Shown here: piece after piece, positions 2 to 18,721 of the stretch
Layout of the letters: every line of letters begins with the position of its first letter
Position numbering within the stretch: position 1 is the first letter of the stretch
NCBI GenBank assembly: GCA_036002345.1
Contig: DASYTM010000060.1
Span: 1 to 19,561 of the forward strand
Source: Candidatus Methylomirabilota bacterium
GTDB taxonomy: Bacteria; Methylomirabilota; Methylomirabilia; Rokubacteriales; CSP1-6
Length of the DNA stretch: 19,561 bases
Reading direction: 5' to 3'
Notes under the pieces: model-generated
What the model was told of the DNA's origin: nothing
Seen by the model: the letters and a program-made list of their open reading frames with translations, nothing else
The model's database searches: none
Made by a program: the position numbers and the translations under genes

Positions 2-226
2 GACGCGGAGCTCTTCGAGATCCTGCGCGCGCTGCGGAGGAGGGTGGCCGAAGAGCGCGGCGTGCCGCCCTACCTGATCTTCTCCGATGCGTCCCTGCGC
101 GACATGGCACGCCTGCGCCCGCGCACGCTGGACGAGTTCCGCGAGGTGAAGGGCGTCGGCGACTGGAAGCTCGAGACGTTCGGCGACCGCTTCCTGACCG
201 CGGTGCGCCAGGCGGTCGCGGGCTAA
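2..226 (+). CDS. recQ: RecQ-family DNA helicase, C-terminal HRDC domain (partial; 5' end lies outside the window)
   Basis: The frame is open from the window edge. The translation DAELFEILRALRRRVAEERGVPPYLIFSDASLRDMARLRPRTLDEFREVKGVGDWKLETFGDRFL matches the HRDC pattern (VPPYxIFSDxxLxxMA ... GVGxxKxxxFG). TAA stop at 224-226. Confidence 0.8.
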   Translation, partial: DAELFEILRALRRRVAEERGVPPYLIFSDASLRDMARLRPRTLDEFREVKGVGDWKLETFGDRFLTAVRQAVAG

Positions 227-1101
227 CGGCCCTCGTCGGCCGCGCCGAGAGCGACGCCGCCGAGGATCAGCACGACCGCGACGAGCAGGGACGGGCTCGG
301 CCACTCGCCCAGCCACAGCGTGGCGACCACCACGCTGACGAGGGGCGTCGCGAGCAGGCCGAGCGAGACCGTGACGGCGGGCAGGCGCTGGCCGGCCATC
401 GCGCTGGCCCAGTACGCGAGCGCCGTCCCCGGGATTCCCGCGTAGGCGAGGAGCGCCACGAGCGTGGGCGTCGGCTCGAACACGAGCGGTCCCGCCCCGA
501 GGTAGGCGAGCGGCACCGTGATCAGGGCCGCCAGCAACATCTCCCACGGCAAGAGATCCAGCGGCGCGGACTGCCAGGCGTGACCACGGATGTGCAGGAT
601 CGCGCCCGCCCACAGGAACGCGCCGGCGAGGATCGCGACGTTGCCCCAGACCGCGCGCGGCTCCGACCAATCGAAGCCGGCGGGATTGAAGAGCACGACG
701 ACGCCGGCGAGGCCGACCGCGACGCCGAGCACGCGGCGCGCGGTGAGGCGCTCGCCGAGGAGGAGCCACGCCCCCGGCGTGACCCAGAGCGGCGTGGTGT
801 AGGCGAGCACCGCCGAGCGGCCGGCGGGAACCAGCGCGAGCCCGATGCTGGTGAGCACGGTGAAGCCGACCATGTGGAGCAGCGTGATCGTGAGCATCAC
901 GGGCAGGTCGGCGCGCGGCGGCAGGACGAGGCGCCCGCGCAGGATCGCCAGCGCGAAGAGCGCGCCGCAGCCGATCACGGTGCGCACCGCCACCGCCCAT
1001 ACCGGGGACATGGCGGCCACGATGACCTTGTTGATGGGCCAGGTGAGGCCCCACGCGAAGACGACCGTGACGAGGAGCGCGACGCCGGCGCGCCGCGACA
1101 C
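223..1101 (-). CDS. EamA/DMT-family permease (drug/metabolite transporter), 292 aa
   Basis: This is the C-terminal 292 aa of the 789-aa track ORF. It is highly hydrophobic with two EamA-like halves (GVALLVTVVFAWGLTWPINK..., ...GIPGTALAYWASAMAGQRLPAVTVSLGLLATPLVSVVVATLWLGE). I place the start at GTG 1101-1099, 11 nt after the MFS stop (TGA 1115-1113). Upstream of that point the ORF becomes Arg/Ala/Pro read-through in a different frame from the MFS gene. Confidence 0.85.
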   Translation of the reverse strand: MSRRAGVALLVTVVFAWGLTWPINKVIVAAMSPVWAVAVRTVIGCGALFALAILRGRLVLPPRADLPVMLTITLLHMVGFTVLTSIGLALVPAGRSAVLAYTTPLWVTPGAWLLLGERLTARRVLGVAVGLAGVVVLFNPAGFDWSEPRAVWGNVAILAGAFLWAGAILHIRGHAWQSAPLDLLPWEMLLAALITVPLAYLGAGPLVFEPTPTLVALLAYAGIPGTALAYWASAMAGQRLPAVTVSLGLLATPLVSVVVATLWLGEWPSPSLLVAVVLILGGVALGAADEGR

Positions 1102-1112
1102 GACGGACGGCG

Positions 1113-2408
1113 TCAGGACGCCCAGGGGCTCGGCTGGGCCGCGCGCGCGGCGAGCGCCTCGCGCTCGAGCCAGCTCACGGCCAGCGGCACGACGAGCAGG
1201 ACGGCGCCGACCGCGTTCAGCGCGCCGAAGCCCCACGCGCCGAGCACCACGCCGCCGAGCGCGCTGCCGACCGCGCCCATGAGGCCCATGACGAGGTCGG
1301 CGAGGCCCTGGATCGACGCGCGCTCTTCGGGTGAGAGCGCGTCGGTGAGGAGCGCGCTGGCGGAGACGAACGCCAGGTTCCAGCCGATGCCGTTGAGGCA
1401 GAGCCCGGCGAGCACGAGCCCGCTCGCGCTGCCCGGAGGCAGCCCGGCCAGCCCCAGCGCCAGCAGCAGCACGAGGCCGCCGGCGCCGATGATGGGCAGC
1501 CGGCCGAAGCGGTCGCAGAGCCAGCCCGAGAGCGGCGAGGTGATGTACATGCCGCCCAGGTGGAACGAGACGGCGAGGCCGATCGTCTGCACGCCGTGCC
1601 CGTGGTCGTGGAGGTAGAGCGGCGAGGTGGACGTGGTGCCGATCATCACGAGCTGGCTCACCATCAGCGTGCCGTAGGCCACGAACACGCGCGGCTCGCG
1701 CAGGATCGCGCCGAGCGCGCGGGCGGGACGGGCGGCGCCGCGCGCGGCGGCGGGCGCCTCGAGCTGGCGCGCGATCGCGAGCGGATCGGGCCGCAGGAGC
1801 GCCTGCACGAGCACGGCGGCGAGGGCGAACGCGGCGAGCGAGATCAGGAACGCGCTCGCCACGCTTCCCAGCCCGAGGGCCGCGCCCGCGCTGACGGCGG
1901 GCGTCATGAGCATGGGCCCGACGATGGAGCCGGCCGCCGAGCCCCAGACGATCAACCCCATCGCCCGGCCGCGCTGCGCGCCGGGGCTGATGTCGGCCGC
2001 CGCGTAGCGCGCGAGCAGGTTCGACGTCTGCGCGGTGCCGAAGAGGGCCATGCCCACGAGGAAGAGCAGGAAGCTCTTCTGGACCACGCCGAGCATCGCG
2101 AGCCCGGCGCCGGCGACGGCGAGCGCGTAGCCGACCGTGAGGCCGGGACGGCGCCCGAAACGCGCCATGAGCCGGGAGAGCGGATAGGCCGCCAGGGCCG
2201 TGCCGAGCGAGCCGATCCCGACGGGCACCCCGGACCACGTGTTGGTGCCGGTGATGGCGGCGGCCATGATGGCGCCGACGGCCATGGTCATGGAGAACCC
2301 GGTGCTGCCGCAGACCTGGGCCGCGAAGAGCGTCACCATGAGCGCGCCGCGCCGGCGCAGCGCGGCGCCGGCGGGCGAGGGGAGCGAAGTCACGCCGACA
2401 TAGTACAC
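1113..2408 (-). CDS. MFS transporter, 431 aa
   Basis: About 12 hydrophobic segments. An MFS loop 2-3 type motif is present (PLSRLMARFGRRPG; compare the D/G-R-x-G-R-R signature). GTG start at 2408 lies 12 nt after the upstream stop. Alternative starts are GTG 2393 and ATG 2339. Confidence 0.85.
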   Translation of the reverse strand: MYYVGVTSLPSPAGAALRRRGALMVTLFAAQVCGSTGFSMTMAVGAIMAAAITGTNTWSGVPVGIGSLGTALAAYPLSRLMARFGRRPGLTVGYALAVAGAGLAMLGVVQKSFLLFLVGMALFGTAQTSNLLARYAAADISPGAQRGRAMGLIVWGSAAGSIVGPMLMTPAVSAGAALGLGSVASAFLISLAAFALAAVLVQALLRPDPLAIARQLEAPAAARGAARPARALGAILREPRVFVAYGTLMVSQLVMIGTTSTSPLYLHDHGHGVQTIGLAVSFHLGGMYITSPLSGWLCDRFGRLPIIGAGGLVLLLALGLAGLPPGSASGLVLAGLCLNGIGWNLAFVSASALLTDALSPEERASIQGLADLVMGLMGAVGSALGGVVLGAWGFGALNAVGAVLLVVPLAVSWLEREALAARAAQPSPWAS

Positions 2409-2420
2409 ACAGCGCCCGCT

Positions 2421-3380
2421 CTACAGCGAGCGCGTGAGCCGCAGGAGATCGACGACACCGCGGATCGAGAGGGGCCGGGCGGCGAGATACTCGCGCTCGC
2501 ATAGGTCCGGGCCCCACTTGAGCTTGTAGCGGGCCTGGCTCGTGGCGGGATAGATCATGCTGCCGTGCCGTCCGAGCTGACGGATCAGCCACGCGGCGAG
2601 GCGGCTCGCGCCCGGTGGCTCGTCGCCGCCGACGATGAACGGCGTGAATCCGAAGTGCAGGAAGGGTGTGCCGTCGGCGCGCATGCGCTCGATGGCGTGG
2701 GCGTTCGTGAGCTCGATGGCGCCCGCGGGAGCGTCGGGCCGGCGCCGCGTGAGGTCGTGGAGGTAGCCCGGGGTCGTTCCCCAGACGGGGACGTACGTGA
2801 TGAATGCGACGGGGTGACCCCCGCCATCCAGCGCTGCGAACACGCGCCGCTGCGCGTCCTCGGGATGGCCCAGCTCCCCGACCATGAAGTCGAGCTCGTG
2901 ATGGCGCTTGGCCTCGAGCCAGCGCGCGCTGACGCCCGCCAGCGCGGCGAAGCTCCGTTCGTCACGCGGGACGTCGCGGCCCAGCTCGACGACGCGCAGG
3001 CCGGCGCGTCGCGCACGGCTGATCTTGTTGCGGAGCTGCATCTTGTCGCCGCCGCCCAGGCTGAAGCGCTCGAGGCCGAGCCCGAAGCTCGTGCCGAGCG
3101 CGTTCACGCGGAAGCCGCGCCCGCGAAACAGCTCCACCTGCGGCTCGCGGACCTGCACGGCGATGGCGCCGCGGCCGCGCGCGGTGGCGTGCGCCACGAA
3201 GTGATCCAGGAGCGGGCCGCGCGCCGCGGGCGGAGCGTGCACGCCGCCGAAGGCGACGAGGTGCCGGCCCTGCTCGCGGTAGGCGATGAAGCCCGGCGTT
3301 CCGTCGAGGGTGAGGCGGGCGTTGCGCGACGAAAGGGCGAGGAATCCCGACGGATGATCGACGAGCGCCGCGGCGTCCAC
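2421..3380 (-). CDS. Stand-alone DUF2156 / phosphatidylglycerol-lysyltransferase C-terminal-like domain protein (aminoacyl-tRNA-dependent transferase family, MprF-C / VlmA-like), 319 aa
   Basis: The sequence follows the DUF2156 pattern: FIAYREQGRHLVAFGG..., ERFSLGGGDKMQLRNKISRARRAGLRVVEL, HELDFMVGEL, VAFITYVPVWG..GYLHDLTRRRPDAPAGAIELTNAHAIERMRADGTPFLHFGFTPF. No N-terminal flippase or TM domain is present. The start is GTG 3380-3378, 2 nt after the upstream TAG (3385-3383). The 64 aa before it in the track ORF are Arg-rich read-through. Confidence 0.8.
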   Translation of the reverse strand: MDAAALVDHPSGFLALSSRNARLTLDGTPGFIAYREQGRHLVAFGGVHAPPAARGPLLDHFVAHATARGRGAIAVQVREPQVELFRGRGFRVNALGTSFGLGLERFSLGGGDKMQLRNKISRARRAGLRVVELGRDVPRDERSFAALAGVSARWLEAKRHHELDFMVGELGHPEDAQRRVFAALDGGGHPVAFITYVPVWGTTPGYLHDLTRRRPDAPAGAIELTNAHAIERMRADGTPFLHFGFTPFIVGGDEPPGASRLAAWLIRQLGRHGSMIYPATSQARYKLKWGPDLCEREYLAARPLSIRGVVDLLRLTRSL

Positions 3381-3382
3381 GG

Positions 3383-4711
3383 CTAGCCCAGACGGTCCAG
3401 GAGCGCCATGCCGCGCACCGTGGCCTGAAATCCGAGCCAGCGCAGCGGCTCCAGGGGCAGGAGCGGCGGATCGTCGCGAAACCAGGGCAGATCCTCGGGA
3501 ACGGCGCCGTCGCACAGGATGGACGCGATCCACGCGCCGGAAGCGACCGACAGCGCGACGCCGTGCCCGCACCAGCCGACCGCGTGCAGCACGGACGGAC
3601 GGCCGCGCAGCCGCTGGATCGCCGGGAGGCCGTCGAGCACGTAGTCGATCACGCCCGTCCAGCCGCCGGCCACCGGCGGCGCGACGGCGCCGAACGTCCG
3701 CCGGAGCTCGCCGGCGAGCGCGTCGAGGGCGGCGGCGCCGCGGCCGTCGTCCTCGGCGCCGCCGCCCCAGCGATATCGGGGCGCGCCCCCGCCGAAGACG
3801 ATGCGGTCGTCGGCGGTGAGGCGCGCGTAGCTGAAGATCCGGCGCGCGTCGAGCAGCGCCTCGCGACCCTTCCAGCCGAGCGCGTCGCGCGCGCCGTGGT
3901 CGAGCGGCGCCGTCACGAGCACCTGGAGATGCACGGGCAGGACGCGGCCGTGAAGGAGGCCGAGCCCCGGTGTATAGGCGGACGTCGCGACCACCACGTC
4001 GTCGGCGATCACGACGCGTTCACCATCGACGTCGAGGCGAACGGGCCGTCGATCTCCCAGGGCCCTGACGCGGCAGCCTTCGGCGATCGTGCCGCCGCGC
4101 GCGCTCACGCGCTCGGCAAGGCCGGCGACCAGCCGCATCGGGTGAAGCGTGCCCGCGGACGGGAGCCTGATGGCGGCGGGGCCGGCGCCGTCGTAGCGAC
4201 GCGCGCCGGGAAGACGAATCAGGCGCTCGAGCGCGTCGTCGTCGAGCATCTCCACGCCGAGGCCGAGGCGGGCATGGAGCGCGGCGAGGGCGGCGAGGCG
4301 GGCTCGGCTGGCGCGCTGTTCGCCCGCCACCGTGAGCTGGCCCGTCATCTCGAGATCGCAGGCAATCCGCTCGGCGGCCACGAGCGTCACGACGTCCTCG
4401 ACGGCACGGGTGGTGGCGAGATAGAGCGCCTTCGCGCGCGCGGGGCCGTGCCGGCGGACGAGCGCGCCGAGGGCCTGGCCGACTCCGGGACTCAGGATGC
4501 CCGTCGTGCGGCCCGAGGCGCCGGCGCCGAGGCGCCCGGCCTCGAGCACGAGCACGCGCGCGCCGGGGCGCCGCTCGAGGACGTGATAGGCGGCCGACAA
4601 CCCCGCGAAGCCGCCGCCGATCACGGCCACATCCGCGCGCGTCGTTCCCGCTGGCAGCGTCGGAAACGCGCGCCCGGCGCCGTCGGCCCACATCGGCGCG
4701 GTCGTGTTCAC
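3383..4711 (-). CDS. FAD-dependent oxidoreductase, DAO (glycine/D-amino-acid oxidase-like) family, 442 aa
   Basis: N-terminal Rossmann dinucleotide motif DVAVIGGGFAGLSAAYHVLER..VLVLEAGRLGAGASGRTTG. The C-terminal part (HAVGWCGHGVALSVASGAWIA) is typical of the DAO family. GTG start 4711-4709 overlaps the upstream TGA (4710-4708) as GTGA. ATG 4693 is an alternative start. Confidence 0.8.
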   Translation of the reverse strand: MNTTAPMWADGAGRAFPTLPAGTTRADVAVIGGGFAGLSAAYHVLERRPGARVLVLEAGRLGAGASGRTTGILSPGVGQALGALVRRHGPARAKALYLATTRAVEDVVTLVAAERIACDLEMTGQLTVAGEQRASRARLAALAALHARLGLGVEMLDDDALERLIRLPGARRYDGAGPAAIRLPSAGTLHPMRLVAGLAERVSARGGTIAEGCRVRALGDRRPVRLDVDGERVVIADDVVVATSAYTPGLGLLHGRVLPVHLQVLVTAPLDHGARDALGWKGREALLDARRIFSYARLTADDRIVFGGGAPRYRWGGGAEDDGRGAAALDALAGELRRTFGAVAPPVAGGWTGVIDYVLDGLPAIQRLRGRPSVLHAVGWCGHGVALSVASGAWIASILCDGAVPEDLPWFRDDPPLLPLEPLRWLGFQATVRGMALLDRLG

Positions 4712-5745
4712 GCCGCGGCTCGGGCGAGCGCCTGGGCGACCGCGGGCGATCGTCCCACGCGCCAGATGCGCCCGTCGACGAGGTAGTGATGAAACGCCAC
4801 GCCCCAGCCGAGGCCGATCAGGACGTTGCGCGTCAGCGTGGAGGGCGCGCTGGCGGCCCCGAGCACGCGCGCGCCGTACCACACGAGACCGAGGGCCAGG
4901 CCGAGGGCGAGATAGCGCGCCAGGCTGCCCGACGGTACGCGGCCGTGGCCGCGCTCGTAGTGCCACACGATCCGGTGGTACTGCAGATTGTGAAAGATCG
5001 TGAGGGTGGCGAGGATGGCCAGCAGGTCGTCGAGCGCCGCGAACACGACCGCGTGGAATCCGATCACGAGCGCGAGCAGGAGGTGCCGCTGGGCGAGGCG
5101 GCGCGGCTCGACGCGGCCGGAGAGGACGGTGACGAGCAGCGCCGTCATCGCCACGACGAAGCCCGCGTCGAGCGCGAGCCGCGCCAAGGGAATCAGCGCG
5201 GGCGGCGTCAGGCGAGGCAGCCCCGTGGCCGCGTAGCCGTCGGAGAGCGAGAAGCGGACGTACGGATAGAGGCAGCCGAGCCAGAGCAGCGCCGTGTCGA
5301 GCCGGGCGCCGTTCGCGTCGGCGGCGCCTTCGCGCCGCCGGTAGAGCCTCAGGAAGCCGTAGTGCTGGCGCACGAGATGCCAGTAGGCCCAGAGGTAGGC
5401 GAGCAGGAGGAACCAGGCGAACAGCCCGCCGGGCTCGGCGAGGCCGGCGTCGAGCAGCGCCACGGCGGGGCCGATCCCGAAGACCGCCCACGACCAGCGC
5501 CCGGGAAGCGCCGCGCGCGACGCGGCGTCGGGCGCCAGGTAGCTTCGCGCGTACGTGCCCCACACGTGCGTGCCGTCGAAGAGCACCCCCCACAGGAACA
5601 CCGCGAGCACGACGGCGGACGGCGGCGCCGTCACGAAGAAGGCGCACAGCGCGAGCCCGGCCACGACCCCGCCCTGAAGCCAGACCAGATCGTCGCGCCG
5701 CGAGATGATCCAGGGCCCCGACGCCGAGAGCACGCCCGCGCTCAT
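4708..5745 (-). CDS. Polytopic integral membrane protein with four conserved-looking histidine motifs (candidate membrane metallo/redox enzyme), 345 aa
   Basis: About 8 hydrophobic segments. His clusters: FDGTHVWGT, YWHLVRQHYG, FHNLQYHRIVWHYERGH, FHHYLVDGRIW. ATG 5745-5743 overlaps the upstream TGA (5744-5742) as ATGA. I do not recognise the family. The motifs do not match the canonical desaturase/AlkB HxxxH/HxxHH boxes. Confidence 0.7.
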   Translation of the reverse strand: MSAGVLSASGPWIISRRDDLVWLQGGVVAGLALCAFFVTAPPSAVVLAVFLWGVLFDGTHVWGTYARSYLAPDAASRAALPGRWSWAVFGIGPAVALLDAGLAEPGGLFAWFLLLAYLWAYWHLVRQHYGFLRLYRRREGAADANGARLDTALLWLGCLYPYVRFSLSDGYAATGLPRLTPPALIPLARLALDAGFVVAMTALLVTVLSGRVEPRRLAQRHLLLALVIGFHAVVFAALDDLLAILATLTIFHNLQYHRIVWHYERGHGRVPSGSLARYLALGLALGLVWYGARVLGAASAPSTLTRNVLIGLGWGVAFHHYLVDGRIWRVGRSPAVAQALARAAA

Positions 5746-6941
5746 GCCGGGCTCGTGGCGAAGCGGGACCACACCATGCGCTGGGCGACCCGCCCGAGCG
5801 AGGAGTTCGCCAGCCCGAAGACACCGCGGTGCAGCACGTCGGCGCCGGGGCCGCCGAGGGCGAAGCCGCAGCTCATCCAGTGCGACCAGCGGATGACGCC
5901 CGCGTTGATCGGCCTCCGCTCCCGCTCGTAGGCGTCGAGCGACCGGTCGACGTCCGTCGGGCCGGCGCCGCTCGCGAGCACGGGACCGAGGTGGCGCGCG
6001 AGCGCGGCGGCGTCCTCGATGGCCATGGTCATGCCCTGGGCCATCACGGGATTGATGACGTGGATCGCGTCGCCCAGCAGCACCGCGCCGCGCGCCGCGT
6101 AGCGCGGCGCGTGGCCGCGCCAGAGCTTGTAGAGGTGGACGCCGACGGGCGAGGCCCGGCGGCCCTCGAGCAGCGGCGAGCGATGGACGATGCGCGCGAG
6201 CTTGTCCGCCGGCGACCCGGAGCGGAAGAGCCGCTCGGCGCGCGCGTGGACGAGCGCGGCCAGCCCCAGGCGGTTCACGCCGGGGACGACGAGGATGCCG
6301 CCGTCCGGATGCAGCTCGGTGCGCAGCACGTCGGGATGTCCCGGTGGCCGATCGATGTCGACGATGAAGAGCGCGTGATCGTACGGCACGCGGGGCAGCT
6401 CGATGCCGAGGGCTCCGCGCACCTTGGACGCCGCGCCGTCGGCCCCCACGACGAGCCGGGCGCGAATCTCCTCCTCACCGCCGCGCGGCGTATCGAGGAC
6501 GACGCCGGTCACGCGGCCGCCGTCCTCGACGATGCGCGTGACGCGCCGGCCGTAGCGCATCTGCACCCGGCCCGTGGCCGCCGCGGCCTCGACGAAGACG
6601 CGTTCGATCTCGGGATGTGGAAGGACCAGATACGGATCCGTCACCCCCGGCAGCGTGAGCGGGACGTCGAGGAGCAGCCCGGCGCGATGGTGATGGAACT
6701 GCATTCGGGCCACGGTCAAGGCCCCGGCGGCGCGCACCCGGTCGAGCGCGCGCCACTCGGCGAGCAGGCGGGTGACGGGCGGCAGCAGGCTCTCGCCGCG
6801 GTTGATGTTGCCGGGGCCCTGGTGCCGGTCGATGACGAGCACGCGCAGGTCGTGCGCCCGCGCCAGCGCGAGCGCGAAGGCGGCGCCGCCGACGCCCGCC
6901 CCCACCACGATCACGTCGAACGCGGTCGTCGAATCTCGCAT
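5742..6941 (-). CDS. FAD-dependent monooxygenase (group A flavoprotein monooxygenase, UbiH/PHBH-like), 399 aa
   Basis: All three signatures are present: GxGxxG (FDVIVVGAGVGGAAFALALAR), the DG motif (LVVGADGAASKVRGALG) and the GD motif (LLGDAIHVINPVMAQGMTMAIEDAAAL). SD GGAG sits 6 nt upstream of ATG 6941. Confidence 0.85.
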   Translation of the reverse strand: MRDSTTAFDVIVVGAGVGGAAFALALARAHDLRVLVIDRHQGPGNINRGESLLPPVTRLLAEWRALDRVRAAGALTVARMQFHHHRAGLLLDVPLTLPGVTDPYLVLPHPEIERVFVEAAAATGRVQMRYGRRVTRIVEDGGRVTGVVLDTPRGGEEEIRARLVVGADGAASKVRGALGIELPRVPYDHALFIVDIDRPPGHPDVLRTELHPDGGILVVPGVNRLGLAALVHARAERLFRSGSPADKLARIVHRSPLLEGRRASPVGVHLYKLWRGHAPRYAARGAVLLGDAIHVINPVMAQGMTMAIEDAAALARHLGPVLASGAGPTDVDRSLDAYERERRPINAGVIRWSHWMSCGFALGGPGADVLHRGVFGLANSSLGRVAQRMVWSRFATSPA

Positions 6942-6954
6942 GGGCGGCTCCGGC

Positions 6955-7332
6955 TCAGGCCCGCGCCGCGAACGGCGCCGCCGAGGATTTGAACGAGTTG
7001 CCGAGCACGCCGCGGTCGCCCGAGAGGTGGATGGGCACGGCGAGCATCGCCCACTCCACGGCGCCGCACGCCAGCGCCCACAGGGCCACCGCGATCGCGG
7101 CGACGAGGTAGCAGTGCGCGAGGTTGTAGAGGCGGTGATAGGTCGGCGCGATGGGCCCGCCGCGGGCGCGCCGGGAGGCCAGGGCGCCGGGCAGGTAGCC
7201 CACCACGTCGATGAGGACGAAGGCCAGCACGAAGCGCGACCAGGCCACGTCCGGCCAGTGCGCCAGCACCAGTGCGACCAGGACGACGACGGCGCCGGCG
7301 TGCTCGGCGCGTGTCCAGCGCGTGGCGTCCAT
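6955..7332 (-). CDS. DUF4260-like small membrane protein, 125 aa
   Basis: Four hydrophobic segments. Motifs resemble DUF4260 as I remember it (FVLIDVVGYLPG, YNLAHCY, IHLSGDRGVLGNSFK versus H-x-G-x-DR-x-x-G-x-x-x-K). ATG 7332 lies 1 nt after the upstream TGA (7336-7334). Confidence 0.6.
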   Translation of the reverse strand: MDATRWTRAEHAGAVVVLVALVLAHWPDVAWSRFVLAFVLIDVVGYLPGALASRRARGGPIAPTYHRLYNLAHCYLVAAIAVALWALACGAVEWAMLAVPIHLSGDRGVLGNSFKSSAAPFAARA

Positions 7333-7333
7333 C

Positions 7334-8191
7334 TCAGTCGAGCCCCGCGCGCGCGATGAGCCGCGCGTGCTCACGCCGGATGCTGGCCTCGATGGCGGCC
7401 ACCTGGTCCTCGTAGGGCGTCTCGGCGATGAGCCGGCCCGGCGCGAGCTCCGCGCCCGCGAAGAGGGTGGGATGGAGCCGCGCGACGGCGTCGAAGAGTC
7501 CCACGAACTCCCGGATGTAGACGCTGAAGATCTCGCCCATCGCCCGCTCCGCGTCGCGACAGAGGGTCGCGACCTTTGCGCGCCGGCCGGGATCCTCGGC
7601 GAGGAGGCGGCGCACCAGGTCGGCGCCGAAGGCCACGTGGCGCGTCTCGTCGGTGAACGCGGCCCGGACGAGCCGCGCCAGGTAGGGATCGAGCGGCGCC
7701 CAGTACCGCTCTTCGTACGCGTAGAGGGGATGGGCCATGCCTTCCAGCACGAGATTCATCAGGACCATGCCCTCGATGAACGAGCCTCCGTCAGCCACCT
7801 CGTAGCAGCGGTCGATGAAGCTCCGGAGCGGAGGGATCAGGATCGGGGCCGTCGCGGCGGCGTCGTCGAGGCCGGCGGCGGCGCTGGCCGCGATGAGCCG
7901 CCGGCGGAACATCTCGTGATGCCGCGCCTCGTCCAGTGTCTGCTGGGCCGCGAAGTTCAGCGCCTCGAGCGTGGGCGCCAGGCGCGTGAGCGCGGCCGAG
8001 ACCCGCAGCGACGCGTCCTCGAAGACGACGAAGAGGGCGAGGTCGAGGCGGTGCACCTCGGCCAGCGGCGCCGAGGTCGCCACCACATCCGGCAGACCGT
8101 CTCCGAGACGGTCCAGATCCCGGCGCTCACGTGTCCACTGCCCCGCCGCGACGGTGTCAACCCAGCGTGAGATCGAAAAGTCGATCGGCAT
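7334..8191 (-). CDS. Ferritin-like di-iron carboxylate protein (four-helix-bundle oxygenase/oxidase type), 285 aa
   Basis: Ligand pattern E / ExxH / E / ExxH: FVVFEDASL, LDEARHHEMF, LVLEGMAHPLY, FTDETRHVAFG. A strong SD precedes the start (GGAGGGAGAG then ATG 8191). The upstream ATG 8206 in the track lies inside that SD. Confidence 0.8.
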   Translation of the reverse strand: MPIDFSISRWVDTVAAGQWTRERRDLDRLGDGLPDVVATSAPLAEVHRLDLALFVVFEDASLRVSAALTRLAPTLEALNFAAQQTLDEARHHEMFRRRLIAASAAAGLDDAAATAPILIPPLRSFIDRCYEVADGGSFIEGMVLMNLVLEGMAHPLYAYEERYWAPLDPYLARLVRAAFTDETRHVAFGADLVRRLLAEDPGRRAKVATLCRDAERAMGEIFSVYIREFVGLFDAVARLHPTLFAGAELAPGRLIAETPYEDQVAAIEASIRREHARLIARAGLD

Positions 8192-10628
8192 GATCTCTCC
8201 CTCCATGTCGGGACGGGACGGGAGCGCCGCGCGAGTCCGTGGGCGCGGGCGGCGCGAGGCGAAAGCCGTGCCGAGTGGCGAGCGCCATGAGGCGATCGAC
8301 GTCCCCGACGGGCACGTTGTCGCCGACGCCCCAGTCGCGCGGGTCGTGTTCGAGCGTCAGGAGGATCGTCTCCGCCAGGCAGGCGAGCTGCACGCCGTCG
8401 GGCAGGTGGCGGAGGTTGGACGGCCCGAAGCGGACGCGAGGGTCCGGCAGGGCGACGTGGCCGCCGTCGATGACCGTGAGGTCGGGCCGCCCCCGAAGAC
8501 GCGCCGAGGCGTCGGGGGGCTGGGCGACGTCGCAGACGAGCGTTCCCGGCGTGAGCGGCGCGTCGTCGAGGACGGCGCGCGCGGCGGCCGTGGCCGTGAT
8601 GACGACGTCGCAGTCCGCGAGCGCGGAGAGGCCGGTCGTGACGGCGACGCGGTTGCCGTCCCGCGCGAGCTCGCGGCGCAGGTGCTCGAGCCCGGCCACT
8701 CCCGTGGCAGGATTGCCGACGAGCACGAGCCCGCGCGGCCGCTCGCGCGCGATCAAGCGCGCGCAGAGGGCGCCGACCGAGCCCCGCGCGCCCACGATCG
8801 CCACGCGCGCGTCGCCGAGGGCCAGGCACAGCGCGCGGCCCGTCCGGATCGTCGCGGCGACGGCCATGCCGGCCGTGAGGGTATTGCCGGTCGTGATGGC
8901 CGGGCCTCGGCCCACGACAGCAAGGCCGCGGCGGCTGTAGGGCGCGGTGTAGCCGCCGAGGCCGACGCGGCGTACGCCGAGACGCGCGGCGAGATCGACG
9001 GCGTGCGCGATCTCTTCGCTCATGCGCCGCAGGCCCCGCCGCGCCATCTGCTCGGGGAGGAGCGGCAGCGCGATCACGATGCCGTCCGCGACGGCGCCCG
9101 TCCGCGAGCGGATGGTCGGGGCGGCCATCACCACGCCGGCGGGCAGCGCGGACGTGAAGGCGCACAAGCGCCGTCGCTCCACGGCGGTCAGGGTGGCCAG
9201 GCCGGGATCGGCGGCCGCCACGTCGTCGGGCTCGGTGAGGTGCACGAGGAACGCGTACGCGGGCCGCGGCTCGTTCGCGCTTCGCGCGGGCGGCAGCCCG
9301 GCCGGGCGCGACGCGTCGTCGGGGGCGACGGAGGGGCCCTCGTCGAGGGCGCCGATGCCGCGCACGATCGTCTCGACCGCGTTGGCTTCGAGACGCCGGC
9401 AGACGTCGCCGAGGCGCGCCACGGCGAGATCGAGCTCGTCGTCGGAGACCACGAGCGGCGGCGTCACGCGGAGGACGTGCGCGTCGCCCAGCGCGGGCAG
9501 GACGAGCACCGAGGCAGTCTCCGCCAGCGTCGCGGCGACGGCATAGGCGTGGAGTCCCTGGTGATCGAGGAACGAGAGCACGCCCCCGGCGCCTCGATCG
9601 GGGCCGCGGAGCTCGATGGCGGTCAGCAGGCCCACCCCGCGCACGGCGGCGATGGTGTCGGGGTAGCGCCGGGCGAGGTCGGCGAGGCCGGCCTGCAGGC
9701 GCGCGCCCTTTCGCGCGGCGGCCTCGGCGAGGCCGCCGGCCGTGAGCGCCTCGAGGACGGCGAGTCCCACGCGGCAGGCGACGTTGTTGTTGGCGAACGT
9801 CGAGGAGTGGCGCAGCGCGAAGGTGTCGTCCCACACGGCGGCGGAGGCGAGGCAGGCGCCGAGCGGAAAGAGCCCGCCACCGAGGGCCTTGGCCACCAGA
9901 AGCACGTCGGGCGCGACGCCCTCGTGCTCGCAGGCGAAGAGTCGCCCCGTTCGCCCGAGGCCCGTCTGGATCTCGTCGACGACGAGCGGGACGCCGTAGC
10001 GCGAGCACAGCTCGCGCGCGCGCCGTAGATAGCCGGCCGGCGGCAGGTGGACGCCCCGCTCGCCCTGCACGGGCTCCACGAAGAATGCGGCGATGCGATC
10101 ACCGTCCCGGGCAAGGCGGCCGGCCAGCGCCGCGGCATCGCCGAACGGGACGCGCTCGAAGCCGCCGGGCAGCGGGCCGAAGCCGGCCGCGTGATGGGGC
10201 TGTCCGGTGGCGGCGAGTGCGCCGAGGGTCTTGCCATGGAAGGAGCCATCGGCGGAGAGGATGATGGGACGGCCCGTGCGCGCGCGCACGAGCTTGATGG
10301 CGGCTTCGATCGCCTCCGCGCCCGACGTGGTGAACACGCAGTGCGTGAGCCGGCCCGGGGCCACTCGGGCGAGCGCGTCCGCCAGCGCCTCGGCGTGGGG
10401 GGCGCGATAGGGCTGCACCATGGCCGGCTCGCCGGCCGCGAGGGCCGCCTGGGCCGCGCGGGTCACGCACGGCGCGTTGTGGCCGAGGGCGACGGCGCCG
10501 TACTGCGCGTAGCAGTCGAGGAAGCGCCGCCCGTGCGCATCGGTCAGCCAGACGCCGTCGCCGTGGACCCACGTGCGGTTCATGCCGAGGAGCCCGAGGA
10601 GCCGGCCGAGCGTCGGATTGAGGGTCAT
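8157..10628 (-). CDS. Bifunctional fusion of a class-III PLP aminotransferase (aa 1 to about 425) and a long-chain acyl-ACP reductase (AAR)-like NAD(P)H domain (aa about 457-790), 823 aa
   Basis: N-terminal half: FTTSGAEAIEAAIKLVR, FFVEPVQGERG, VVDEIQTGLGRTG, and a PLP lysine in LLVAKALGGG. C-terminal half aligns block by block with cyanobacterial AAR as I remember it. The blocks (this protein / AAR) are YAFLVHLTEP / FGLIGHLTS, GLGGYTAP / ALGGFTSI, ITTGNTLTAG / FTTGNTHTAY, VAIVGARGSVGALCARL / VAVVGATGDIGSAVCRWL, LACLAETILLTLEH / MFACFAEAMLLEFEG (catalytic Cys retained), and ALATRHGF / ASVRHGF. ATG 10628-10626 overlaps the upstream TGA as ATGA. Confidence 0.85.
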   Translation of the reverse strand: MTLNPTLGRLLGLLGMNRTWVHGDGVWLTDAHGRRFLDCYAQYGAVALGHNAPCVTRAAQAALAAGEPAMVQPYRAPHAEALADALARVAPGRLTHCVFTTSGAEAIEAAIKLVRARTGRPIILSADGSFHGKTLGALAATGQPHHAAGFGPLPGGFERVPFGDAAALAGRLARDGDRIAAFFVEPVQGERGVHLPPAGYLRRARELCSRYGVPLVVDEIQTGLGRTGRLFACEHEGVAPDVLLVAKALGGGLFPLGACLASAAVWDDTFALRHSSTFANNNVACRVGLAVLEALTAGGLAEAAARKGARLQAGLADLARRYPDTIAAVRGVGLLTAIELRGPDRGAGGVLSFLDHQGLHAYAVAATLAETASVLVLPALGDAHVLRVTPPLVVSDDELDLAVARLGDVCRRLEANAVETIVRGIGALDEGPSVAPDDASRPAGLPPARSANEPRPAYAFLVHLTEPDDVAAADPGLATLTAVERRRLCAFTSALPAGVVMAAPTIRSRTGAVADGIVIALPLLPEQMARRGLRRMSEEIAHAVDLAARLGVRRVGLGGYTAPYSRRGLAVVGRGPAITTGNTLTAGMAVAATIRTGRALCLALGDARVAIVGARGSVGALCARLIARERPRGLVLVGNPATGVAGLEHLRRELARDGNRVAVTTGLSALADCDVVITATAAARAVLDDAPLTPGTLVCDVAQPPDASARLRGRPDLTVIDGGHVALPDPRVRFGPSNLRHLPDGVQLACLAETILLTLEHDPRDWGVGDNVPVGDVDRLMALATRHGFRLAPPAPTDSRGAPVPSRHGGRDHADRLFDLTLG

Positions 10629-11374
10629 GCGTGACAGGCCTCGTGGATCCTCACGAACATGTCGCGAATCTCGCCGCTGTTCGCGGCGAGGCGGTCGGGC
10701 GTCCAGCCCCGCGTCGAAATCGCCGGCTGCACGTGGACGCGGACGGTGCCGGGCAGGGCGTTGAAGCCCCGGCCGGGATCGATGTCGCGCGGAATCTCGA
10801 TGTAGAGGGGGACGATGGGCGCGCCGAGGCTTGCGGCGAGCTGAAAGTTGTCCGCGTTGAACGGCCCGAGCCGTCCCGTGGTCACGCGCTCGCCCTCGGG
10901 GCTCAGATAGATGGAATCTCCGGTCCGCCGGAGCAGGCCCTCGGTCGCGCCGAACCACCGCGCACGCTCCGCCGGCTTCGAGGGTGGCGGCGCCCAGCGC
11001 GTTCCCATCAGCGTCGTGAAGATGCCGAGGGGCGCCATCCACCGGAGGAATCCGTCGAGATCCTGGGCGCCGACGAAGCGCGTCCTGGGCAGGCCGAGGG
11101 CGACGAGGACGAACATGTCCAGCGTCGAGCTGTGATTGGAGACGTAGACCGTCTGCGTCTCGGCGAAGGGCTCCGTCTGGTACACCTCGAGCCGCACGCC
11201 CCACATCCGGAGCACCGCGCGGCTGAGCCGCCCGGCGATGACCTCGCTGTAGAGCCGCCGCGCGGTGAACGACGTCACGACCGCGACGGCGAGCAGGAGG
11301 ACCGCGGAGATGGTCAGGAGCGCCAGCGTGGCCGCGGCCAGGAGCACCGCGCGGATGGCCCGTCCGTTCTTCAT
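10625..11374 (-). CDS. PlsC/LPLAT-family acyltransferase (1-acyl-sn-glycerol-3-phosphate acyltransferase-like), 249 aa
   Basis: N-terminal TM anchor. Acyltransferase motif I is NHSSTLD (HX4D), motif III is YLSPEGERVTTG (PEGTR-like), and motif IV-like is APIVPLYI. No SD precedes ATG 11374. GTG 11347 is an alternative start. Confidence 0.85.
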   Translation of the reverse strand: MKNGRAIRAVLLAAATLALLTISAVLLLAVAVVTSFTARRLYSEVIAGRLSRAVLRMWGVRLEVYQTEPFAETQTVYVSNHSSTLDMFVLVALGLPRTRFVGAQDLDGFLRWMAPLGIFTTLMGTRWAPPPSKPAERARWFGATEGLLRRTGDSIYLSPEGERVTTGRLGPFNADNFQLAASLGAPIVPLYIEIPRDIDPGRGFNALPGTVRVHVQPAISTRGWTPDRLAANSGEIRDMFVRIHEACHA

Positions 11375-11388: not shown

Positions 11389-11404
11389 GGCAGGAGGCGT
11401 GCCA
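11389..11404 (-). promoter_or_regulatory. Candidate sigma-54 (-24/-12) promoter for the acyltransferase operon
   Basis: The minus strand reads TGGCACGCCTCCTGCC, with GG-N10-GC spacing matching the consensus TGGCACG-N4-TTGCW. It is the only intergenic TGGCAC with correct spacing that I found. It lies next to a divergent sigma-54 activator gene. Caveat: the predicted TSS is only about 4-6 nt from ATG 11374. Confidence 0.45.
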
Positions 11405-13230: not shown

Positions 13231-14790
13231 ATGGCGCTTTTCAGCGAGGCCGAGGCGAGCGTCGCCCGGGCTGTCTCGGGACTCGTCTACGGCAACCCGT
13301 TCGTGCCGGAGCGGATGGCGTACGAGCGCGCCGTCCTCGGATCGGACTTCGTCGCGGCCTATCCCGTGTGGCACGCGCCGGCAAGCCGATCCCAGAATCC
13401 CAACCTGCCTGCGCTCCACGCCCGCGTGGAGCAGCTGGCGGACGACGTCCTCAAGCGGCTCCTGTACGGCCCGGACCGCGCCCGCGCGGAGGCCGCGGAC
13501 CTGGCGCTCTACGAGGATCTGGTCCTCTACCTCGTGTTCTATCGCTACTTCGACGACTTCTACGTCCCCATCGGCGATCCGGCCGCGCGCGGGCGTCGCC
13601 TGGAGTGGTTCGAGCGCTTCCTCGCCGACCTCGAGCATTACCTCGCCGTGCCGCGCGGGCCCAGCGACTGGCTCGCCGCCGCGCCCCACCTGTTCGCGAT
13701 CTTCTTCCAGGTCCGTCGCGCGTTTCATTTCATCTACCGCAACATCGCCGGCGTCTCCATGCCCGCCGCCCGGCTGCGCGCCGCGGTGTGGCAGTCGGTC
13801 TTCACCCGGGACGTGAAGCGCTACTCTCGCGTGTTCTACGACCGCATGGGCGACATCACCACGCTCGTCACGGGGCCGTCGGGCACCGGCAAGGAGCTGG
13901 TGGCGAGCGCCATCGGGCTGAGCCGCTATCTTCCGTTCGACGCCAGGACGCGCCGTTTCGAGGAGGATTTCGCGGAGGGCTTCTACGCGCTGAACCTGTC
14001 GGCGCTGTCGCCGACGCTCATCGAGTCCGAGCTGTTCGGGCACCGCCGCGGCGCCTTCACCGGCGCGCAGCACGATCGGGCGGGGTGGCTGGAAGTCTGT
14101 CCCCCGCGCGGAACGGTGTTCCTCGACGAGATCGGCGAGGTGGACCTCGCGATCCAGGTCAAGCTCCTGCGGGTCATCCAGACGCGGACGTTCCAGCGGC
14201 TCGGGGACTCCCGCGACCGCAGCTTCCGGGGCAAGGTCGTGGCCGCGACCAACCGCGACCTCACGCGCGACATGAAGGCCGGCCGCTTCCGCGAGGATCT
14301 CTACTACCGACTCTGCGCGGACCAGGTCACGACGCCGTCCCTGCGCGAGCGGTTGCGGGATTCACCGGACGAGCTGGGCATCCTCCTGCGCTTCGTGGCC
14401 GAGCGCGTGAGCGGCGCGGACGAGGCGGAAACGCTGGCCGCGGAGGTCGCGCGGTGGATCGACGCCCACGTGCCGGCCGACTACGCGTGGCCGGGCAACG
14501 TCCGCGAGCTGGAGCAGTGCGTCCGCAACATCATGATTCGCGGGGAGTACCAGCCGTCCGCCGACTCCCGGGGCGTGCCGCGTGAGCGGCTCGCCGAGGA
14601 ATTCCTCGACGGCTCCTGCACGGCCGACGAGCTGCTCCGGCGCTACTGCACGCTCGTCTACGAGCAGACCGACAGCTATCAGGAAACCGCGCGCCGTCTC
14701 GAGCTCGACCGTCGCACGGTGCGCGACAAGATCGACGACGCGCTGCTGCGCGAGCTGCGCGGGGAGAAGAGCGCCCGCGACGATCCGTGA
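13231..14790 (+). CDS. Sigma-54-dependent transcriptional activator (bacterial enhancer-binding protein) with an unrecognised N-terminal domain, 519 aa
   Basis: AAA+ core: Walker A GPSGTGKE, GAFTGA loop (HRRGAFTGA), Walker B VFLDEIGE, ATNRDL..FREDLYYRL, WPGNVRELEQ. C-terminal Fis-type HTH: SYQETARRLELDRRTVRDKI. The first ~200 aa show no receiver, PAS or GAF signature that I can see. Confidence 0.9.
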   Translation: MALFSEAEASVARAVSGLVYGNPFVPERMAYERAVLGSDFVAAYPVWHAPASRSQNPNLPALHARVEQLADDVLKRLLYGPDRARAEAADLALYEDLVLYLVFYRYFDDFYVPIGDPAARGRRLEWFERFLADLEHYLAVPRGPSDWLAAAPHLFAIFFQVRRAFHFIYRNIAGVSMPAARLRAAVWQSVFTRDVKRYSRVFYDRMGDITTLVTGPSGTGKELVASAIGLSRYLPFDARTRRFEEDFAEGFYALNLSALSPTLIESELFGHRRGAFTGAQHDRAGWLEVCPPRGTVFLDEIGEVDLAIQVKLLRVIQTRTFQRLGDSRDRSFRGKVVAATNRDLTRDMKAGRFREDLYYRLCADQVTTPSLRERLRDSPDELGILLRFVAERVSGADEAETLAAEVARWIDAHVPADYAWPGNVRELEQCVRNIMIRGEYQPSADSRGVPRERLAEEFLDGSCTADELLRRYCTLVYEQTDSYQETARRLELDRRTVRDKIDDALLRELRGEKSARDDP

Positions 14791-14799
14791 GGGGAGAAA

Positions 14800-15173
14800 G
14801 AACGCCAGAGAAGATCTGTAAGCCGGGTCCTGTCCCCCGAGCGAAAAACCCAGGGCGACGGTCATTTCTCTAGGACGCCGGTTACCCGGCGTCTCGAGCG
14901 GCCGGACCCGAGAGCACGGACGGGCCGTCCGATCGCTCTCCTATTTGGCCTTGCTCCGGGTGGGGTTTGCCTAGCCGGCGCGGTCACCCGCGTCGCTGGT
15001 GAGCTCTTACCTCACCGTTTCACCCTTACCGCCTTGCGGCGGCGGTATGTTTCTGTGGCACTGTCCGTGGAGTCGCCCCCCCTGGCCGTTAGCCAGCACC
15101 CTGCCCTGCGGAGCCCGGACTTTCCTCCCGCCGTGTTGCCACGGCCGGCGACCGTCCGATCTTCTCTGGCGCA
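14800..15173 (-). ncRNA. rnpB: RNase P RNA, bacterial type A
   Basis: The minus strand contains the universal blocks GGGAGGAAAGTCCGGGCTCC, GGTAAGGGTGAAA, CCACCCGGAGCAAGGCCAAATAGG and ACAGGACCCGGCTTACAG, in E. coli M1 order. A 14-bp P1 helix is formed by 15171-15158 (CGCCAGAGAAGATC) with 14816-14803. Ends are approximate, within a few nt. Confidence 0.9.
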
Positions 15174-15179
15174 TCCATC

Positions 15180-15185
15180 AGTATA
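15180..15185 (-). promoter_or_regulatory. Candidate -10 hexamer (TATACT) for rnpB
   Basis: TATACT on the minus strand sits about 7-8 nt upstream of the first P1 nucleotide. It is an AT-rich hexamer in otherwise very GC-rich DNA. I found no convincing -35. Confidence 0.35.
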
Positions 15186-15197
15186 GCGGCGGCCGGC

Positions 15198-16100: not shown

Positions 16101-16125
16101 CCCGGGGGTACTGTAAACGGAGCGC

Positions 16126-16177
16126 GAGACCGGCGTGAACCGAGGGTGGCCTGAGATAGAGGCGCGGGGCTGCGCTC
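16126..16177 (+). repeat. 52-bp repeat, copy 1 (inverted partner at 18581-18632)
   Basis: GAGACCGGCGTGAACCGAGGGTGGCCTGAGATAGAGGCGCGGGGCTGCGCTC. It matches the reverse complement of 18581-18632 at 43 of 52 positions by hand alignment, with an identical 17-nt core GGGTGGCCTGAGATAGA (16144-16160). Confidence 0.7.
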
Positions 16178-16184
16178 GTCTCGG

Positions 16185-16610: not shown

Positions 16611-16667
16611 GGCAACCTCCGGGGTGTCGCGGTGCACGCCGCGTACCGTCGAGATCGCGCTACGAGG

Positions 16668-17183: not shown

Positions 17184-17294
17184 GGGGGGACGAACGGCAA
17201 GGATCACGCCAGCCGTAAGGTGGCGAGAATACGGCACGGCCGCGCTCCCGCGGGCGCCGTCGTGTCACGCCCGGCGCGCCAGAACGGCAACGCG

Positions 17295-18632: not shown

Positions 18633-18649
18633 AACCTCCGATACAAAAG

Positions 18650-18721
18650 TGGGCCCACCTGGATTCGAACCAAGACCGTTCCGGTTATGAGCCGGGTGCT
18701 CTGCCGTTGAGCTATGGGCCC
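18650..18721 (-). tRNA. tRNA with CAT anticodon (annotated Met; could be the lysidine-modified Ile2 species); CCA not encoded
   Basis: Hand-folded cloverleaf. Acceptor stem GGGCCCA/TGGGCCC. D stem GCTC/GAGC. Anticodon arm CCCGG-CTCATAA-CCGGA, with a 27:43 C-A mismatch. T arm CTTGG-TTCGAAT-CCAGG. Discriminator A. It is not initiator-like: there is no 1:72 mismatch and no three G-C pairs closing the anticodon stem. Confidence 0.85.

Follow-up and report, generated by a model that had tools for sequence, protein, structure and literature searches.

The DUF2156 gene and its operon

We analysed a window of 19,561 nucleotides from Candidatus Methylomirabilota bacterium, which is the entire contig (DASYTM010000060.1) of a Methylomirabilota (Rokubacteria) metagenome-assembled genome (MAG) and has 74% G+C, and focused on the gene for a stand-alone DUF2156 protein at positions 2421 to 3380, hereafter the target. 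The target belongs to an operon of 11 minus-strand genes that extends from 11374 down to 223 and whose junctions are ATGA/GTGA start-stop overlaps, one gene overlap of 35-50 nt or spacers of 1-13 nt. The named genes encode, in order, a PlsC-type acyltransferase, an aminotransferase-reductase fusion, a di-iron protein, a small membrane protein, a FAD_binding_3 enzyme, a His-rich membrane protein, a DAO-family enzyme, the DUF2156 protein, an MFS transporter and an EamA transporter. The gene set of the window was defined by a sliding frame plot together with Pfam matches; a simple open reading frame (ORF) filter based on G+C at third codon positions (GC3) misses several genes when used alone. Seven of the genes form a core that recurs in related loci:

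8157..10628, minus strand: class-III aminotransferase (N-terminal) joined to a long-chain acyl-acyl carrier protein (ACP)-reductase-like domain (C-terminal), candidate fatty-amine synthase; PF00202, E=5e-92
7334..8206, minus strand: VlmB-type ferritin-like di-iron oxidase, candidate oxidase of a hydrazine to an azo/azoxy compound; assigned by relatives in the PDB and relatives named by NCBI
6955..7332, minus strand: VlmO-type small membrane protein, candidate hydrazine (N-N bond) synthase; DUF4260-like, ~3 transmembrane (TM) segments, 125 aa from the MD... start
5742..6941, minus strand: single-component flavin adenine dinucleotide (FAD) monooxygenase (FAD_binding_3), candidate N-hydroxylase replacing VlmH/VlmR; PF01494, E=5e-41
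4708..5745, minus strand: His-rich polytopic membrane protein of 345 aa, candidate membrane di-metal oxygenase; conserved, family unassigned
3383..4711, minus strand: DAO-family FAD oxidoreductase, 442 aa from the GTG at 4711, candidate C-N oxidase for a hydrazine or amine intermediate; PF01266, E=3e-57
2421..3380, minus strand: the target, a candidate DUF2156/tandem-GNAT aminoacyl-tRNA transferase of the VlmA/AzdA type, stand-alone; 319 aa, GTG start; PF09924

A sequence-only reading of this stretch had described the target as a 319-aa protein encoded at 2421-3380. The ORF is real and the span is right, while the strand had to be corrected to minus; the three blocks that had been quoted as typical of the family (FSLGGGDKMQLRNKISRARRAG, DLTRRRPDAPAGAIE and FLHFGFTPF) are found verbatim in the minus-strand translation. 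A plus-strand reading of 2421-3380 contains a stop and gives a nonsense translation, and was rejected. We also rejected a longer ORF of 383 aa (to 3572): its in-frame extension overlaps the 3' end of the DAO gene and has no coding periodicity, the periodicity switches at ~3380, and public gene calls and homologues begin at or near the GTG. GC3 periodicity and the codon-position frame plot back the frame and strand of the target, and public data hold an identical 319-aa call (P0001, 100% identity). The same reading had placed the start 2 nt after the stop of a DAO-type gene and the target between flavoenzymes and exporters. Both descriptions hold, as the GTG at 3380 follows the TAG at 3385-3383 of the PF01266 gene, and the flavoenzymes precede the target gene and the MFS and EamA exporters come after it.

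The target is covered over its whole length by the PF09924 profile (LPG_synthase_C/DUF2156; E=2e-50, profile positions 10-297 of 298). Its hydrophobicity nowhere reaches the level of a TM segment (maximum KD19 0.99). The absence of a membrane module, which had been part of the earlier description, is therefore true of the target polypeptide itself; a likely VlmO-like membrane partner is, however, encoded upstream at 6955..7332.

Relationship to VlmA-type transferases and their partners

In the known pathways, N-alkylhydroxylamines are O-aminoacylated by VlmA and AzdA; the hydrazine is formed by VlmO, and VlmB produces the azoxy group (PMC11705231, PMC9379638, bioRxiv 10.1101/2023.10.13.562208). 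Like VlmA from the valanimycin and AzdA/Ady7 from the azodyrecin pathway, which are ~320-340 aa long, the target is a stand-alone DUF2156 tandem-GNAT protein, and it is 38-44% identical to VlmA-type proteins of Streptomyces, one of which lies in an apparent valanimycin cluster. When plasmid records were searched with the target by tblastn, the matches fell into two sharply separated groups: stand-alone DUF2156 proteins of Streptomyces, Embleya and Paraburkholderia (39-45% identity, E ~1e-58 to 1e-69) and annotated MprF proteins (24-28% identity, E 1e-6 to 1e-12). The phmmer scores gave the same picture, with 215-257 bits to VlmA-type proteins versus 47-64 bits to MprF domains. The Streptomyces matches of the tblastn search sit in vlm-type clusters. 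One of these (L023) holds the full valanimycin gene set of decarboxylase, permease, VlmB, VlmR, VlmO, VlmH, VlmA, SerRS, VlmK and VlmJ; three others (L018, L022, L024) contain VlmB-like proteins named as such by NCBI, and L022 resembles a long-chain azodyrecin/elaiomycin-type cluster.

The sequence-only reading had named a phylogeny as a check of its proposal. In our neighbour-joining tree, the target falls outside the catalytic domains of the aminoacyl-phosphatidylglycerol (aaPG) synthases and together with the stand-alone VlmA-type proteins. MprF is split from the stand-alone proteins by a long branch with 99-100% bootstrap, with one exception: the 309-aa DUF2156 protein of a Deltaproteobacteria MAG (L013, 20-928), also stand-alone but located at a contig edge and perhaps truncated, groups with MprF at 99% bootstrap. 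Because of this protein, being stand-alone does not by itself mark a protein as VlmA-type. The annotated MprFs used for comparison have 860-985 aa, and the NCBIfam model bifunc_MprF scored 70.9 bits on the target against a cutoff of 600. At E<=1e-30, a HMMER library search recovered 72 representatives (50% identity clusters), which are without exception stand-alone or fused to VlmO, and multi-TM MprF-type proteins turned up only below ~1e-27 in the same search.

The AlphaFold2 model of the target, with a predicted local distance difference test (pLDDT) score of 90.3, matched MprF synthase domains best in Foldseek (TM scores 0.77-0.80), followed by other tandem-GNAT transferases that depend on aminoacyl-tRNA; at the sequence level, phmmer detected the MprF domains in the PDB at E=7e-15. 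In the alignment, the target retains the conserved residues S151, E162, D209, R212, Y277, K286 and K288, and its basic acceptor-stem helix (R117/K119/R124) is conserved as well. It keeps the MprF-invariant residues S709, E720, D765, R768, Y831 and K840 (P. aeruginosa numbering), whose functional importance is known from mutagenesis of the alanyl-PG synthase A-PGS. Because of the fold match, the kept basic helix and the kept MprF-invariant residues, the target looks catalytically competent and tRNA-dependent. It shares with MprF and the other aaPG synthases (LysPGS, AlaPGS; 6LV0, 4V34, 4V36) the fold, the tRNA-binding helix, the superfamily-invariant residues and presumably the aminoacyl-tRNA donor. 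MprF differs in having a flippase/TM domain and in its genomic context, and the acceptor of the target would be a hydroxylamine rather than phosphatidylglycerol (PG). Proteins with this fold have come to serve acceptors other than phospholipids more than once, as shown by the fungal steryl-amino-acid synthases ErdS/ErgS and by the other DUF2156 or GNAT aminoacyl-tRNA transferases FemX, Sbb17/Orf11, DhpH-C and PacB, which are structural neighbours of the target model; ErdS is far from the target by sequence (E ~2e-3), Sbb17 and FemX reach TM scores of ~0.58, and all of them serve other acceptors in other contexts.

As in the VlmA/AzdA clusters, genes of the VlmO and VlmB type are clustered with the transferase gene in the window. 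The VlmO-like protein is 42% identical (E=2e-29) to a small hypothetical protein of the vlm-type cluster of S. lavendulae. Its match to PF14079 is weak, as was likewise reported for Ady6 (PMC9379638). The published metal ligands of VlmO are D51, H82, H110 and D114 (PMC11705231), and in the protein of the apparent valanimycin cluster (L023) these positions align exactly as D, H, H and D. The ligand columns are conserved across the alignment with one exception in the H82 column (L030), and the window protein has all four. For the VlmB-like protein, the best PDB match is the 'Putative VlmB homolog' 6D9F/8WVR (E=3e-26, full length), and it is 31% identical (E=5e-25) to an NCBI-named 'VlmB-like protein'; the di-iron ligands E63, E93xxH96, E155 and E187xxH190 are invariant across the family.

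Six metagenomic proteins (P0076, P0243, P0244, P0250, P0255, P0267) are in-frame VlmO-like–DUF2156 fusions. One of them came from the first homologue search, and the others are HMMER representatives with an N-terminal extension of 150-180 aa. The VlmO-like part is a three-helix membrane domain with D51 and the HxxxD motif intact, and we found no mention of such fusions in the literature cited here. As Rosetta-stone evidence, these natural fusions indicate that the VlmO-like and DUF2156 proteins act together. A fusion is also chemically sensible because an O-aminoacyl hydroxylamine ester is unstable.

The operon also encodes candidates for making and hydroxylating the amine. The C-terminal 397 aa of the 823-aa aminotransferase-reductase fusion match the N-terminal domain of PigE (4PPM, E=2e-27) and the cyanobacterial acyl-ACP reductase (6JZQ, E=2e-16, full length). 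NCBIfam likewise describes the fusion as PigE-like: it has the two domains of the prodigiosin enzyme PigE, an AAR-like reductase and a class-III aminotransferase, in the reversed order. PigE and the cyanobacterial enzyme AAR act in pyrrole and alkane synthesis, respectively, whereas the context of the window fusion is an N-N pathway. Given these homologies, the fusion should convert acyl-ACP via the aldehyde to a fatty amine, by the logic proposed for azodyrecin (PMC9379638). For azodyrecin, too, the fatty amine arises via an aldehyde and a class-III aminotransferase, and the cluster has no dedicated aminoacyl-tRNA synthetase; the window would resemble it in both respects. The fusion and VlmB-like genes overlap by 35-50 nt (8157-8206) depending on the ATG chosen, and a C-terminal tail of ~29 aa in the window fusion does not align with relatives. 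The closest solved homologue of the FAD monooxygenase is PqsL (2X3N/6FHO, E=9e-24, full length), which N-hydroxylates a primary amine (PMC7248105).

A search for a dedicated aminoacyl-tRNA synthetase paralogue had also been proposed. None was found in the window or within 10 kb in the relatives, and a SerRS homologue is absent from the window-type loci. We also looked for a tRNA, T-box or aminoacyl-tRNA synthetase dedicated to the pathway; the window has no RNAs besides a tRNA-Met and the RNase P RNA, neither of which lies in the operon.

The two remaining core proteins are the His-rich membrane protein and the DAO. We found no match for the His-rich protein in Pfam or NCBIfam, but its homologues number >500 in many uncultured phyla and are without exception annotated 'hypothetical'; DUF2156 clusters carry it in every context examined. 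Its invariant motifs are D57xxH60, H123xxxxH128, H252xxxxH257 and H319H320xxxD324, and its AlphaFold2 model (pLDDT 89.7) had no fold match in the PDB by Foldseek. Because both share an HxxxD motif, we tested the protein as a distant or duplicated relative of VlmO/DUF4260; the hhalign probability was 0.1%, no better than controls, and this relationship was rejected. The protein may represent a new family of membrane metallo-oxygenases. The DAO gene shows a GTGA overlap with the upstream gene and is conserved beside the DUF2156 gene in most window-type loci; it is missing beside the core in L016, where phmmer found none in the 10-kb flanks and a weak DAO signal appeared at the locus edge only. 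The window DAO has no sequence match in the PDB at 1e-5. The DAO homologues Spb39, Tri27 and Apy10 oxidatively cleave hydrazine intermediates in the s56-p1, triacsin and actinopyridazinone pathways (PMC11705231).

Proposed pathway and competing explanations

What the comparisons establish is homology, linkage and residue conservation, and from these we infer the substrates and every chemical step. We consider it likely, with good confidence, that the target is a soluble aminoacyl-tRNA transferase of the VlmA/AzdA type in a probably sigma-54-controlled operon that builds an N-N bond on a fatty chain. This agrees with the proposal of the sequence-only reading that the protein is less likely to be a phospholipid resistance factor than a VlmA-like transferase for a small molecule or a fatty (hydroxyl)amine, a preference that gains support from the phylogeny, the VlmO/VlmB partners, the amine supply and the fusions. 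Compared with the definition of an aliphatic azoxy cluster of the valanimycin/azodyrecin/elaiomycin/KA57-A type, the operon has the VlmA/VlmO/VlmB triad and the amine-forming enzymes, and its N-hydroxylase is a candidate of a different enzyme class.

In the proposed pathway, the acyl-ACP-reductase domain of the fusion would reduce a long-chain acyl-ACP to the aldehyde, and the aminotransferase domain would convert this to a primary fatty amine; the alkyl group is taken to be long-chain because the acyl-ACP-reductase domain is present. N-hydroxylation of the amine would follow, by the PqsL-like FAD monooxygenase or perhaps by the His-rich membrane protein. With its basic helix (around R117), the target is predicted to bind an aminoacyl-tRNA of the cellular pool at the acceptor stem and to transfer the aminoacyl group, by analogy most likely Ser or Ala, to the oxygen of the N-alkylhydroxylamine. 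The unstable O-aminoacyl ester would pass to the VlmO-type membrane metalloenzyme, yielding an N-alkyl-N'-(carboxyalkyl)hydrazine, which the VlmB-type di-iron oxidase could turn into an azo/azoxy compound. The DAO, the His-rich protein and PlsC may tailor the product, and the MFS and EamA transporters may export it.

The window differs from the VlmA/AzdA clusters in several respects. The hosts of the latter are Streptomyces rather than uncultured Methylomirabilota; they use the two-component hydroxylase VlmH/VlmR rather than a PqsL-like single-component flavoenzyme; and the window has fused amine-making enzymes, an additional His-rich protein and DAO, the retained residues S151/E162/D311 and sigma-54 control. 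Some of these differences weigh against our interpretation. The actinobacterial and Paraburkholderia VlmA proteins form a clade with 85% bootstrap to which the target family is sister and within which it is not nested, so that function is transferred by context and not by orthology. The tree itself was built by neighbour-joining with 300 bootstraps and few outgroups, and in it VlmA-type proteins found by search stand in for verified VlmA, Ady7 and AzdA sequences. The target family keeps the MprF-like residues S151, E162 and D311, which are replaced in the actinobacterial VlmA clade; in the actinobacterial/Paraburkholderia clade, the S151 position is D in 9/9 proteins, and the other two positions vary, with P and H being commonest. 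We found no VlmH/VlmR homologues in the window or in any window-type locus with all seven core genes, although VlmH-like genes are present in some more distant relatives (L005, L008, L010, L019). The PqsL-like enzyme is likewise missing from the related loci L014 and L015, and the N-hydroxylation step is thus not secured. Finally, the published azoxy pathway has nothing equivalent to two of the conserved genes, those for the His-rich protein and the DAO, and the operon may therefore yield another end product; for the whole clade, function is inferred from homology and context.

A serious alternative, to which we assign a fairly low probability, concerns the end point of the pathway: the DUF2156 step would be as proposed above, but the DAO would oxidatively cleave a C-N bond of the hydrazine and release, instead of an azoxy compound, a mono-substituted hydrazine (alkylhydrazine or hydrazino acid) or a lipid-linked N-N head group for further elaboration by lipid-type enzymes. 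The conservation of the DAO gene in most window-type loci and, by analogy, the hydrazine cleavage by DAO homologues are consistent with this outcome, as are the conserved His-rich protein, which has no assigned role, and the PlsC, CDP-alcohol phosphatidyltransferase, diacylglycerol (DAG)-kinase-like, MMPL and separate LPG_synthase_TM genes that recur in relatives. A VlmB-type oxidase with intact di-iron ligands is, however, also conserved and forms the azoxy group in known pathways; moreover, the window DAO is linked to Spb39/Apy10 at the level of the DAO family, with no PDB match, and L016 lacks the gene beside its core.

Two further explanations concern the transferase reaction itself. The target might be an aminoacyl-lipid synthase without a flippase, acting on PG, on diacylglycerol or on a hydroxylated lipid that the operon produces, with VlmO- and VlmB-like neighbours that are unrelated to it. 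The fold and all superfamily-conserved residues are common to the aaPG synthases, the MprF-like S151/E162/D311 are kept where actinobacterial VlmA has changed them, PlsC is present in the window and lipid-type genes including a separate LPG_synthase_TM (L032) in relatives, and the L013 protein is an example of a stand-alone DUF2156 protein that groups with MprF. We nevertheless regard this explanation as unlikely, with only a small chance of being correct. Identity to MprF is 24-27% and the bootstrap split is 99-100%; the linkage to VlmO-like genes is tight and widespread and includes the six fusions; and what the operon provides is an amine together with a candidate N-hydroxylase, not a glycerolipid. 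The target also has no TM segment, and the isolated catalytic domain of MprF reportedly does not support aaPG synthesis in vivo (PMC8131360). Still less probable is a direct N-aminoacylation of the fatty amine to an amide (a lipoamino compound) without any N-N chemistry. As an off-pathway activity, AzdA reportedly transfers alanine to a fatty amine lacking the hydroxyl when AzdR is missing (bioRxiv 10.1101/2023.10.13.562208), and the window locus has no VlmH/VlmR pair; yet a PqsL-like N-hydroxylase candidate is present, and genes of the VlmO and VlmB type are conserved along with their intact metal ligands, VlmO sometimes being fused to the transferase, which would be pointless without an O-acyl hydroxylamine. 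We therefore consider this explanation improbable and give it almost no weight.

Distribution, regulation and further features

Close homologues of the target (55-82% identity) are abundant in metagenomes and stem from Methylomirabilota, Binataceae, Thermoanaerobaculia and other Acidobacteriota, Nitrospiraceae, Thioploca and others. The seven-gene core recurs, intact or shuffled, in 12 further loci, nine of which have all seven genes; it occurs in Methylomirabilota, Binatia, Acidobacteria and other lineages without cultured members. With hidden Markov models (HMMs), a VlmO-like gene was found in 15 of the 16 window-type loci with adequate flanks and a VlmB-like gene in 12 of them, compared with 0/5 MprF loci for either gene, although the flanks of the MprF loci were shorter. 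A related cluster (L019) lies on plasmid pBPHY01 of Paraburkholderia phymatum STM815 at ~871-882 kb, in a cultured and genetically tractable rhizobium; it contains the aminotransferase-reductase fusion, VlmO-like, DUF2156 (44% identity), DAO-like and VlmH-like genes, and the record is unannotated.

The azoxy/hydrazine N-N enzymes VlmA, VlmO and VlmB have so far been described from Streptomyces and close relatives, and the same core chemistry, rearranged, is now seen by homology in uncultured phyla that dominate soils and aquifers. A published genome survey of azoxy clusters covered actinobacteria only (PMC9379638), and our literature search, of limited coverage, turned up no vlm-type or azoxy cluster described from organisms other than actinomycetes. 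Most likely, a modified vlm-type pathway is widespread in uncultured soil and groundwater bacteria, as far as gene content can tell. The VlmA/VlmO/VlmB chemistry is known; new are the different class of hydroxylase, the fused amine-forming enzymes, the two unexplained conserved partners and the broad taxonomic range. We tentatively entertain, with more doubt than belief, that these loci represent a large undescribed N-N branch in which the triad chemistry is coupled to the new His-rich family and a Spb39-like DAO, the product being, instead of an azoxy antibiotic of the kind made by Streptomyces, a new class of hydrazine- or azoxy-bearing membrane lipid or lipid-derived signal; its hosts would be Methylomirabilota, Binatia, Acidobacteriota, Nitrospirota, Planctomycetota and others together with Paraburkholderia phymatum.

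The locus offers candidate new enzymes for N-hydroxylation and hydrazine processing, and the His-rich protein has a confidently predicted, apparently new membrane-protein fold with a His-box metal site. The natural VlmO–VlmA fusion could ease structural studies of the membrane hydrazine synthase, an enzyme that is poorly understood, and the pBPHY01 cluster is a cultured entry point and practical experimental model. Genome annotation needs correcting, as all these DUF2156 proteins are now labelled lysyl-PG-synthetase-like.

Several relatives carry lipid-type genes beside the cluster. A gene of the DAG-kinase family (DAGK_cat/YegS_C, VlmJ-like) directly follows the DUF2156 gene in many of them, and the window is without it. 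The VlmJ-like genes are located as follows:

L009, 501-1403: VlmJ-like DAG-kinase-family gene
L016, 11104-12015: VlmJ-like DAG-kinase-family gene
L030, 7858-8793: VlmJ-like DAG-kinase-family gene
L031, 11033-11968: VlmJ-like DAG-kinase-family gene
L032, 8765-9775: VlmJ-like DAG-kinase-family gene
L034, 11005-11949: VlmJ-like DAG-kinase-family gene

The PrpD-type partner VlmK is absent beside these genes, and a serine-derived hydroxyl may thus be phosphorylated but not eliminated. MMPL lipid exporters occur in two related operons (L016, 12066-14444; L031, 13403-15850), and a separate LPG_synthase_TM gene of the MprF flippase type (PF03706) in another (L032, 14226-15287, plus strand). A B12-binding radical-SAM enzyme and a CDP-alcohol phosphatidyltransferase are encoded beside the cluster in L014 (11031-13393) and on the P0192 contig, where genes for a PlsC-type acyltransferase and a fatty-acid desaturase are present as well; in L031 (16475-17068), the phosphatidyltransferase is found without the radical-SAM enzyme, ~5.5 kb off and on the opposite strand. 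Because PlsC, CDP-alcohol phosphatidyltransferase, VlmJ-like, MMPL and LPG_synthase_TM genes recur, the accessory genes of the relatives suggest a lipid-like product that is flipped or exported and is maybe not a simple azoxy antibiotic.

Two other observations were made in relatives. The DUF2156 homologue of L011 (10001-10662) is split over two frames (two overlapping high-scoring segment pairs) with no partner genes found, and is either a pseudogene or an assembly error. In L014, a 1229-aa FG-GAP/Calx-beta protein (13952-17641, minus strand) 3 kb from the N-N cluster matches the alpha domain of anammox hydrazine synthase (PF18582), which probably reflects beta-propeller similarity only.

The remaining operon genes and the putative regulatory elements of the window are the following:

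10625..11374, minus strand: PlsC-type acyltransferase with an N-terminal TM helix, first operon gene; PF01553, E=7e-14
1113..2408, minus strand: MFS transporter, probable exporter, 12-nt spacer after the target gene; PF07690, E=9e-36
223..1101, minus strand: EamA/DMT transporter, last operon gene, 11-nt spacer after the MFS gene; PF00892, E=2e-35
11390..11404, minus strand: sigma-54 promoter-like site TGGCACGCCTCCTGC, upstream of the operon on the correct strand
13231..14790, plus strand: sigma-54-dependent transcriptional activator, divergent from the operon; PF00158, E=1e-46

The PlsC gene has an ATGA overlap with the next gene, the aminotransferase-reductase fusion. It is accessory and outside the conserved core. 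It is missing from L002-L004, and a PlsC-type gene recurs in the P0192 contig; the MFS gene is not conserved among the relatives either.

The operon is probably under sigma-54 control, as judged from motif and gene arrangement. The site at 11390..11404, within the gap of 122 nt that precedes the first operon gene, is the sole site of the window with <=1 mismatch (0.67 expected per window). Two Methylomirabilota-type loci have perfect TGGCAC-N5-TTGC sites at the equivalent place (L002, 2298-2312; L003, 2295-2309), and in both a related sigma-54 activator is also divergent and upstream of the operon. At <=2 mismatches, sigma-54 motifs are not enriched in the window (13 observed, 14 expected), and the case therefore rests on the position of the one-mismatch site and the perfect sites of L002 and L003. 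The window site lies only ~16 nt before the ATG of the PlsC gene, leaving almost no leader, and either the site or the start codon may need revision.

Between the sigma-54 activator and the promoter region, the window encodes a 526-aa soluble protein without a Pfam match (11497-13077, minus strand), which is not adjacent to the operon in L002-L004. Outside the operon, we found a bacterial RNase P RNA of class A (14803-15167, minus strand; 316.7 bits, full length) and a tRNA-Met (CAT) (18649-18721, minus strand). These two RNAs have no relation to the operon and explain why some stretches of the window show no protein-coding signal.

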